Under the pieces are notes generated by a model. That model saw only the letters and a program-made list of their open reading frames with translations. It had not been told where the DNA came from and did not search any database. A stretch of 64,000 bases of DNA from Eledone cirrhosa (lineage: Eukaryota). The translations under genes were made by a program, and so were the position numbers. The DNA is taken from assembly GCA_964016885.1 (NCBI GenBank), contig OZ024748.1:22506001-22570000 (forward strand), given 5' to 3'. This document shows, piece by piece, positions 61,477 to 64,000 of this stretch (its first letter is position 1; every line of letters starts with the position of its first letter).

Positions 61477-61517
<41 letters not shown>

Positions 61518-61527
61518 AACGAGTAGG

Positions 61528-61623
61528 ACCCCGACGGCTGAGCTCAAGCCGTTTCGACGGCTAATTCTGGACTAAATGAACATTTTTATCCTGGTATTTG
61601 AATAGCCGAGCTTCTCAAGGGGT
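61528..61623 (-). ncRNA. Type I hammerhead ribozyme, U3:A8 core variant, at the PLE 3' end (family F1)
   Basis: Minus strand: acccc-TTGAGAA-gctcggcta...tagccgtc-GAAA-cggc ttgagctca gccg-TC-ggggt. Stem I acccc/ggggt, stem II cggcta/tagccg, stem III cggc/gccg, GUC site. Confidence 0.78.
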
Positions 61624-62723
61624 AATTCCATATATGGTAAAAGTGGTTGTCACAAGGATTGGTCAAAAGTTTGTCGTTGAAACATAATAATTCTATGATG
61701 GCAGTTTGTGGAGGGAAGGGGTAGCTGAACCTGCCAGTAGGAGAAAGAGGGAGAGGGGGTGGAGGAGACCCATTCATGCGTTGATAGTGCCGGCTACAGC
61801 TGGGCATGAGGTCAAAGAAGATACTAGGGAGGGGGAGGGGGGGGAAGTCGAAACAATAAGTAGAACAATATGGGGTAAATATATAGAAAAATACCGAGAG
61901 TGTTAAAAAGCAATTAAATGTAAAAAAAAAAAATTTAACAATTTCTGGTTACTACGACCTAAGTCTCTCACTGGTACTGCTAGGCTAACGAAAGGTATAC
62001 TAGGAATTATAATGAGACCCTTTTAAGAGGTATAAGTAATAAACCGAGCATATCTTACGGTGACGGGTCAACAAGTGAGGGGCCAAAATACTAAAGAAAC
62101 TACCACGAAATAATAAATAAAGGTTTCTACCCAGGCACAAGGCCAGCAACCACCCAGTGCAAAAAAGTAAACTAATACGAAATAATAATTCAGAGTCCCG
62201 AAAAAGAATACTAATACTATCTCTAAGGGTGCCGCCACGATACAAAAGTTCTAGTGCAAGCTACATAAAAGCTCGTACGAAGTATATATAAAATTTGATA
62301 CGGAAAATTAATTCAGAATCCCCCCCCCCCCCCCCAAAGTAAATACTGATATACGAGAAATTAAAGCAAAGATACCACTAAGAAATATAGAAAGCACGGA
62401 AAAGGGGCAGCGGTCGGATAAGAGGGCAAGTATCCGGGGTCTAACATATCTGCTATAAAAAGCGGAGTCGGCCAAATCTATCATAGAATAAGGGAAGGGG
62501 GTGGGGGTACTGATGCTACAAAGGACCGAGGGACTGCCTCGGGTGGGCGAGAAAAAGACGACGACAAAGAAAGAGAACTGGGGTGGAAGGACTAGGGAGG
62601 GATGGGGGGAAGAAGGAAATATAGAGGAAGCGATAAAAAGATATAAAAGAAGATCTTACGTCTACCTTTGCAAGCAGGGGTTGCCCATTACAAAATCGGC
62701 AAGTGGGGTGTTATAGCCCTAGT

Positions 62724-63380
62724 CTACCCCCCCCCCCGGTCATTATGGGGTTTGAGGGCGTGGTAAGTCCTACGCAATCTGTGTTTACATGCAGTAATCA
62801 GTTCATCTTTCTTGTTTAGGAGTTGGTCCGTCGAAAACAGCATTTGTAAAGTTTCCTCCGAGCATAAATTGCACGGACGGCGTCCTCCCGTGTAAGAGTT
62901 GGCTCTGGACAGTAAGCTCCAAGTGAGATCATAGGTAATGTTGTTATCCTTGAGGTCCCATATGTGGCCCGAAAGTGTAGTGGCGTGACGCCGGGCCGGG
63001 TTTCGGAAGGTATGTCTGTGTTGGTATAGCCGGGTCTTGAAATCACATGCAGTTAATCCTATATAAGCTTTGTTGGAGGTGTCCGTCCTCACGTTGCACT
63101 GGTAGATCACATTACGATCTCTGCATCTGTTGTCGAGGGGGCAAATGGATCCATCAGGACAGTTGCACCTCCTGGTCGGCTTTCCACTGCTATTTAGGTT
63201 ATTTCTTCCATAGGGGTTGAGTTTTTTGTTGTTAGAGGAGACGATGTTTTGTGCAAAGTTTGGTGTGGTGCTGTAAGAGAGTTTGGTGGTATTTTTGTTA
63301 ATTATGTTGTGGTAGCGGTGTTGTAGTGGGAAGTGTTTTTCAATGAGCCTAAAGAAGATTTTCCCGATAGGAGTTGTCAC
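62724..63380 (-). pseudogene. GIY-YIG endonuclease domain of the PLE polyprotein (frameshifted from the upstream RT/thumb segments)
   Basis: 218-aa ORF with VIY...YIG, conserved R/H/E/N residues and Cys/His motifs; upstream ORFs 63349-63555 and 63411-63689 are in different frames. Confidence 0.88.
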
Positions 63381-64000
63381 CTCGGCGTTGTGGGGGAGGA
63401 TTGAACCATGTTACATTGCGTGAGCGGCGGTGTCGTCTGCTGGTTCCGCTAATGGAAGCTGGACAGTAGGATATTTCCTCCCGGAAACCACTCCGCTTGA
63501 GGGCCTGGTTGTAATAAGGCGCATGTTCCTCGAATATCTGCTCATTAGCTGACAAACGGGATATGCGGAGGGAGATGTTTTTAACCAGGTTGTTTGTGAT
63601 GTTCCTAGGATGGTTTGACCGGCGGTGGATGTAGTGCAGGTTGTCGCTAGGTTTCCTGTATGGGTAGTACAGATCATTATCGAGGTCAAGGGTAACGTCC
63701 AGGAAGTTTACTCGGGTCAGGGACGTTTGTAGGGTTATTTTAAATCCGCAGTCGCGAAGAAGCTGATTAATTGTTTACGGACCCGATCTGTACTACTGGG
63801 GCTCTACCCTTTAAGGGTAAGGAGCCCATCATCACGGTACAATCCACCGCCGAATGCAGGAAACATATCGGTGAGTTTGGCTATTAGGAATAATCCTATA
63901 AGATCAGTGACCTCAGCCGAATCCGTCGCGCCCATGCTGACGTCGAAGGGTGAGTCGGGAGCTCTCTTTATCCATTTGGAGTTGTCGAAGAGTAAGACTG

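Follow-up and report, generated by a model that had tools for sequence, protein, structure and literature searches.

The window analysed here, a stretch of 64,000 nucleotides from Eledone cirrhosa (contig OZ024748.1, forward-strand positions 22,506,001 to 22,570,000), closes with an arm of a Penelope-like element (PLE) of a family that we call A, in which reverse transcriptase (RT) and GIY-YIG coding pieces are followed on the same minus strand by a hammerhead motif lying 1.1 kb behind the stop codon. The host is an animal with a microsatellite-rich genome of 3.0 Gb. The features of this copy are the following:

61516..64000, minus strand: the long arm, inverted and tail-less, of a Penelope-like insertion from the U3a subfamily of family A
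63349..64000, minus strand: coding pieces of the RT core and thumb (YRDD, FLDVTLDL), located by tblastn against the natural 601-aa frame of locus L060
62724..63410, minus strand: 228-aa frame with the end of the thumb, the CxCX5C linker (CNCPDGSIC) and the GIY-YIG endonuclease (VIY...AYIG)
61624..62723, minus strand: 3' UTR of 1.1 kb, pyrimidine-rich on the sense strand, between the stop codon (62724) and the hammerhead
61619..61623, minus strand: 5' strand of stem I, ACCCC
61612..61618, minus strand: 5' strand of the core, UUGAGAA (U3-U4-G5-A6-G7-A8-A9), with U3 at 61618 and A8 at 61613
61556..61611, minus strand: stem II domain, 56 nt, the same span in families A and B
61533..61555, minus strand: GAAA (61555-61552), stem III ACGGCU/AGCCGU (6 bp) and GUC
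61513..61532, minus strand: 3' strand of stem I, GGGGU (61532-61528), and the first terminus, ending at TAT against the (TA)n target

The arm extends about 125 bases beyond the end of the window, where it meets a short direct arm head to head; the short arm carries an 80-nt tail (L031:3124-3420, outside the window), while the window arm has none. The RT pieces are interrupted by frameshifts near 63770 and 63400 and by one in-frame stop, and the 5' third of the ORF is missing. The 228-aa frame also contains CxxC (CNLC) and CxH (CKH), the list of motifs being taken from section 11 of PMC8557442. Judged from its sequence, the copy in the window, being 5'-truncated, frameshifted and tail-less, is a dead arm, one of two in an inverted insertion. 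The original prediction had described it as the parent element, which does not agree with the 5' truncation, or with the two frameshifts and the in-frame stop relative to the 601-aa frame of L060. The linkage of ORF and hammerhead that it proposed holds well, being continuous in 17 of 20 large loci, which were picked by RT similarity.

Most of the changes that are diagnostic of subfamilies sit in the 3' UTR. A 45-nt stretch of it (62116-62161, minus strand) resembles, at 79-85%, one end of a short and very abundant repeat, which has about 17 matches in the window (e.g. at 1344, 1550, 8487, 11178, 16730, 25490-27058, 34085, 38012 and 48615) and is also found after the short arm (L031:3495). A near-perfect AT-rich hairpin (61395-61487) adjoins the (TA)n tract where the element ends, and a related one (13097-13163) lies beside the island at 12841 described below; the two are possibly copies of a separate small repeat preferring the same targets. 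Two open frames of 625 and 998 aa, apparently little decayed, are located just past the window (L031:4450-9757, minus strand) and are presumably ORF1 and the endonuclease-RT ORF2 of an L1/Tx1-type LINE, and another locus holds an open frame of 1,031 aa (L056:6308-9400, minus strand), which resembles that of an RTE-type LINE.

The organization of a full-length element can be read from six of the 20 large loci, which are partial tandems with the order hammerhead, tail, 5' UTR, ATG. The full unit measures 3.58 kb (3,578 bp in L049), and the natural open frame of 601 aa in L060 covers the protein from RT to endonuclease. The 5' part including the ATG is present in the six partial tandems, in which the tail is directly continuous with the 5' UTR and the ATG follows the predicted cut site at a distance of about 190 nt. 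A start of the ORF inside the hammerhead, as hinted by L058, was rejected, since the other five of the six tandems have a stop codon there. SDKTGN, which contains the DKT motif, is found in all six tandems; the RWK motif is present as LRWRT, with a conservative K-to-R change, and CNCPDGSIC, CNLCSEE and ACKH are present as well, with only one Cys between VIY and YIG and no CCHH. Most arm ends adjoin (TA)n. The protein has 2534 homologues at E<=1e-20, the best being 39-55% identical, and the 120 listed include none with an informative name; neither Pfam nor NCBIfam gave a match for the protein, and a metagenome scan with the endonuclease frame yielded 185 pattern matches, 0 of them confirmed. 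A search of sequencing runs listed no RNA dataset with the element, and contigs of two runs, compared with the locus, were uninformative on expression and RNA ends.

The nearest named relatives belong to the Hydra clade of Craig et al. (2021; PMC8557442), in particular Hydra-1_Obim, whose protein resembles that of family A by eye in the printed alignment. Both have a C-terminal GIY-YIG domain, DKT, RW(K/R), CxCX5C, CxxC and CxH motifs and no CCHH, and both combine (TA)n targets and partial tandems with an inverted 5'-truncated arm, a tail at one end and a hammerhead in the pLTR; inverted arms and the one-sided tail are thus already described there. On the basis of these motifs, membership of family A in the Hydra clade is likely. 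The unit of 3.58 kb exceeds the size of Hydra clade elements, generally <3 kb (a general trait, not a definition), and the tail of 80 nt exceeds the 30-40 nt given for the clade (PMC8557442). Furthermore, all 26 rows for Hydra in file S2 of that study show CUGANGA with a short stem II, whereas in family A the core is U3:A8 or C3.A8, the stem II domain measures 56 nt and stem III has 6 bp; the canonical core, like the length, is given there as a general trait, and file S2 was obtained with a canonical descriptor, so that variant cores could not appear in it. Elsewhere (L127, L146:2163-3018, L121:2604-3011, L248, L249) there are pieces of other Penelope-like families that share these motifs and are 29-56% identical to family A, making the genome home to many such families.

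The motif on the minus strand between 61623 and 61528 is confirmed, from its sequence, as a type I hammerhead. The stem II domain consists of G10.1-C11.1, a 2x1 internal loop, a CGGCUA/UAGCCG helix and a loop region of 32 nt, and the predicted cut falls 3' of C17 (61533), after GUC, so that the first terminus lies 20 nt beyond it. Family B, an older sister with its own endonuclease frame, 68% identical to that of A, and with copies 66-94% alike pairwise, has U3:A8, GAAA and GUC in common with A; a G-C pair of the stem II helix in A corresponds to A-U in B, and the palindromic loop of stem III keeps GAGCUC in both. Across 11 hand-picked copies of A and B, 92.8% of cells are paired, and one pair has changed on both sides; values as high come up in 21-22 of 500 shuffles, and slid controls give 18-49%. 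Folding energy gives no support (z -0.12 against shuffles), and the assignment is based instead on the motif, the stems and the comparison of A with B. A full hammerhead on the strand of the ORF, with the core UUGAGAA and a long stem II domain, is thereby upheld as originally predicted, with 56 nt for the domain. The further expectation that a search for CUGANGA would miss the ribozyme is consistent with Rfam, which returned no hammerhead among the best 150 of 309 rows and none among all four rows of a second search. Pseudoknots between loop II and stem I or between loop II and the tail were sought by eye, with nothing convincing. About 1000 bases upstream of a family B hammerhead, in L122, an unrelated repeat carries a canonical CUGAUGA...GAAA hammerhead-like motif.

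The U3:A8 core stands at the head of the original prediction, but it is already published for the hammerheads of Penelope elements, with about 1,300 U3-A8 matches in Schistosoma (Cervera and de la Pena, 2014; PMC4209133), and for other natural hammerheads (Perreault et al., 2011; PMC3088659), and so is not new. The Cercyon PLEs of Schistosoma mansoni resemble family A in the 3:8 covariation of their type I hammerhead, in a palindromic loop III and in having many scattered, truncated copies. Their hammerheads are minimal, with almost no helix III, whereas helix III of family A has 6 bp and its stem II is long; moreover, the account of Cercyon, as far as it was covered, reports no amplified C3.A8 lineage, unlike what is found in family A (PMC4209133). 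The covariation from C3-G8 to U3-A8 seen by Perreault et al. in several natural hammerheads is likewise as here, while the part of their paper considered here contains neither a transposon lineage analysis nor an unpaired 3.8 state (PMC3088659).

All eight islands noted in the window outside this arm are present, four belonging to family A and four to family B:

12839..13036: family A mini-insertion, tailed arm 12839-12978 (minus strand) and inverted tail-less arm 12980-13036 (plus strand)
32458..32602, minus strand: single tailed arm of family A
47136..47343: family A mini-insertion of two inverted arms, U3b-type in the letters that follow stem I
49464..49670: family A mini-insertion, tail-less arm 49464-49528 (minus strand) and tailed arm 49528-49670 (plus strand)
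6991..7069, minus strand: family B fragment with the 3' half of the hammerhead
7710..7818, minus strand: tail fragment, B-type in the letters that follow stem I
12508..12765: two neighbouring mini-insertions of family B, each a tail piece with an inverted 3' half of the hammerhead

The family A islands (at 12841, 32460, 47138 and 49467) are 89-97% identical to a natural tandem copy and consist of the tail and the 3' half of the hammerhead, three of them (12841, 47138 and 49467) being inverted two-arm insertions. The islands at 7003, 7713, 12530 and 12664 are of B type, judged by the sequence on their hammerhead side, although in those at 7713 and 12530 the shared tail scores higher against A than against B. 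The proposal that the islands are terminal fragments of one PLE family is thus right as to their terminal nature and has to be divided between two families; similarly, the hammerhead 3' half of which they were said to consist is present, but the four family A islands add the 80-nt tail, which the window arm lacks. The 5' core is absent from all eight, so that no island can cut. The same form prevails in family B at large, where all 30 loci picked with a 3'-half probe (L087-L116) are tiny insertions without the 5' core, and where that probe has 884 matches against 181 for the 5' core probe, which together indicate that the majority of B insertions end no more than about 30 nt from GAAA.

Exact 24-mers were counted across the whole genome to determine the state of the core in family A, giving 880 matches for C3.A8, 648 for U3:A8, 6 for U3.G8, 2 for C3:G8 and 7 for other letters at position 8; these are counts of exactly matching arms rather than of insertions, and are lower bounds that miss subfamilies differing inside the 24-mer. 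A Watson-Crick 3:8 pair is thus found in the window copy and in family B (U3:A8), but is absent from 880 of the 1,528 exact family A matches, and U3:A8 is not the main state of the family. The change from C3-G8 to U3-A8 had also been called compensatory; the window copy does have the U3:A8 pair, but since the pair is broken in 58% of the exactly matching arms, the implied claim that it is kept for cleavage is weakened. Indeed, the U3C mutant suggested as an inactive control corresponds to the allele that is commoner in nature. Of the 30 sequences that match the window copy best, a sample biased to the query, 21 read UUGAGAA, 2 CUGAGAA and 7 UUUAGAA. The last seven (L013-L019, contig C20) are near-identical, sharing a G5-to-U core change and similar flanks, and by their sequence likely arose by segmental amplification of one dead insertion.

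The dimorphism at position 3 could also be understood by shifting the register of the core, with N7 missing and the G at 61614 serving as G8, so that C and U form a C-G or a U.G pair with it. A C or U opposite a fixed G would account for the dimorphism of family A, and the extra base that this register leaves after A9 is typical of metazoan PLE hammerheads; however, family B reads UUGAUAAG, with a U at that position and no G on offer. The shifted register is contradicted by this core and can hardly be correct. The register of the original prediction agrees with the UUGAUAA of family B, in which position 7 varies and A8 is fixed. Among the 100 listed of the 181 family B matches, U3 is found in 100 and A8 in 93, and the uniform U3 argues that U3:A8 is ancestral to A and B and C3.A8 derived.

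The relationship between the two alleles was followed in 40 loci per allele, drawn from contig C1. A tree built on about 400 columns from 65 arms places all 37 C3 arms on a single, internally structured branch (100/98), along with two U3 rows (L185 and L208), which are read, from their placement, as reversions. The two arms of the L185 insertion (G000:C1:248354450-248355840) differ at position 3, most simply by a later C-to-T change, and are the sole discordant pair: adjacent arms carry the same allele in 45 of 46 pairs, against an expected discordance of 49%, indicating that C3 was already in the template. A second tree, of 55 tailed arms and rooted with nine arms of family B, nests C3 within U3 (85/82), a moderate support with a bootstrap that has not settled. 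Mean pairwise divergence is 10.7% among U3 arms and 6.5% among C3 arms, and the nearest-neighbour distance is equal (3.8%), which suggests that the two alleles spread during similar periods. Among the variants in the coding sequence of 18 C3 arms, those present in at least three copies comprise 25 silent and 7 replacement changes and 0 stops, compared to 133 silent, 240 replacement and 6 stop changes among private variants (Fisher p=4e-6 for shared against private, 133:246). This excess of silent changes among shared variants indicates that the ORF of the C3.A8 lineage was under purifying selection, and that the lineage kept making master copies with a working protein. From these data we infer a history in which a canonical C3:G8 core would have become U3:A8 in the ancestor of A and B, and then C3.A8 in one lineage of A. 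In the literature covered, which takes in few of the subscription journals, we found no report of an autonomous lineage that had amplified with its 3.8 core unpaired.

When one hammerhead was mutagenized comprehensively, every single and double mutant of this region had low activity except for the swap of C-G to G-C (PMC9901934), a region-wide result that covers C3.A8 and also U3:A8; U3-A8 was noted elsewhere as shown to be active in vitro (Perreault et al., 2011; PMC3088659, section 8). Since a lineage with a core predicted to cut poorly kept transposing, cutting is likely weak or unneeded for jumping. Our main reading, to which we assign a probability of about 0.6, is accordingly that the window holds a Penelope-like element with Hydra-type motifs and the published U3:A8 core, that the commonest branch of its family has an unpaired C3.A8 core and yet transposes, that self-cleavage is likely weak or dispensable, and that the 3' half of the hammerhead and the tail likely act as RT start signals. 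The PAc element, a Poseidon of Anolis, provides a precedent, since insertion in vitro was no lower with mutants of its hammerhead (Frangieh et al., 2024; PMC11167929).

The pattern of change along the element bears on this reading in both directions. Across family A, lineage-level changes hit 1 of 45 stem and core sites (probe-fixed sites left out) and 63 of 301 sites in the UTR and loop II (p=0.0009), an avoidance of stems and core that fits selection on the ribozyme fold and counts against dispensability, as does the retention of U3:A8, GAAA and GUC between A and B; inside the C3 clade the same test is not significant (1/45 against 26/299, p=0.23) and points to neither relaxation nor retention. 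The hammerhead may cut, and be needed, in all lineages, C3.A8 being tolerated with help from the protein, through dimerization by the loop III palindrome or as a C.A wobble, and slow cutting being enough. The majority of the C3 clade retains every other core and stem base, the GAGCUC palindrome is common to A and B, and natural core variants with low but detectable activity exist (PMC3088659); furthermore, the PAc hammerhead cuts only with its own protein (PMC11167929), and by analogy a protein could rescue a mismatched core. However, C3.A8 is equivalent to a G8A single mutant within the low-activity region of PMC9901934, C3 is predicted to stabilize an off fold, and C3:G8 revertants failed to spread (2 matches), so that we regard required cutting as unlikely.

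This off fold arises because AGCCGUC is present twice, allowing an alternative hairpin that is able to hide GAAA. Its predicted probability is 0.45 for the window copy, 0.72-0.83 for three C3 copies and 0.80-0.81 for two U3b copies, and it drops to 0.0 in L049, in which a private change removes the hairpin. Such values would also suit a two-state switch, in which the hairpin hides GAAA until the protein binds and the core variants purposely lower the rate. Yet the off fold is at 0.0 in all three family B copies folded and is therefore not conserved, nearest-neighbour models ignore tertiary contacts, and the z-score is -0.12, which leaves a switch a good deal less probable still than required cutting.

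The reading of the 3' half and tail as start signals is based on the termini. Among 146 arms, 63 end 20 nt past the cut site, 70 at +98 to +103, 8 run into the 5' UTR and 5 end elsewhere, so that the arms stop at two sharply defined sites separated by 80 nt, each of them an internal TAT set against (TA)n. Pairs of arms on opposite strands combine one tailed and one tail-less arm in 44 of 45 cases. Moreover, the tail (63/67 identical positions between A and B) and the hammerhead 3' half (21/23) are far better kept between the families than the 5' core and stem II domain (37/63), which is in line with their likely retention as reverse-transcription start signals, although the high identity of the tail could instead be due to recombination. 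PAc offers the closest parallel to these ends, since its RT initiates at two sites bounding the tail, both strands are nicked and extended, and the target is AT-rich. The two systems differ in that the PAc starts are without homology to the cut DNA, whereas both termini of family A lie at TAT matching (TA)n, and in that the PAc ORF begins inside the hammerhead, unlike the ATG of family A (PMC11167929).

Combining our own data on termini and arm pairs with the two RT starts and the two-strand priming of PAc, we infer a two-terminus priming model for insertion. A partial-tandem copy would be transcribed through pLTR, ORF and pLTR, and the RT/GIY-YIG protein would nick a (TA)n target on both strands. 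The two 3' ends would then each anneal to a UAU of the RNA, one located 20 nt and the other 100 nt past the hammerhead cut site, and the two cDNAs, mostly truncated early, would be joined head-to-head, giving inverted arms with one tail. The islands of the window would be the shortest products of this process, terminated earliest.

A stronger version of the main reading holds that the C3.A8 lineage is a natural knock-out, which lost the 3:8 pair and cutting, stayed autonomous through successive masters and became the commoner form, with the motif serving as a landing site for the RT and one RNP priming once at each of the two TAT sites; we put this forward tentatively, rating its chances somewhat short of even. 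The function of PLE hammerheads has been called unclear (Craig et al., 2021; PMC8557442). What is new here is not the U3:A8 core, but a derived C3.A8 branch that is more numerous than the paired form. The 80-nt tail, the TAT at both termini and the one-tail rule in 44 of 45 pairs constrain models of how inverted Penelope ends are formed. Family A further offers matched natural alleles, U3:A8 and C3.A8, with few other differences in the motif, hundreds of arms each and a readable history, so that one cleavage assay on matched alleles would tell whether, in the germ line of a living animal, a lineage can do well without cutting. If the lineage is indeed a natural knock-out, ribozyme cleavage would be dispensable for Penelope transposition in vivo.
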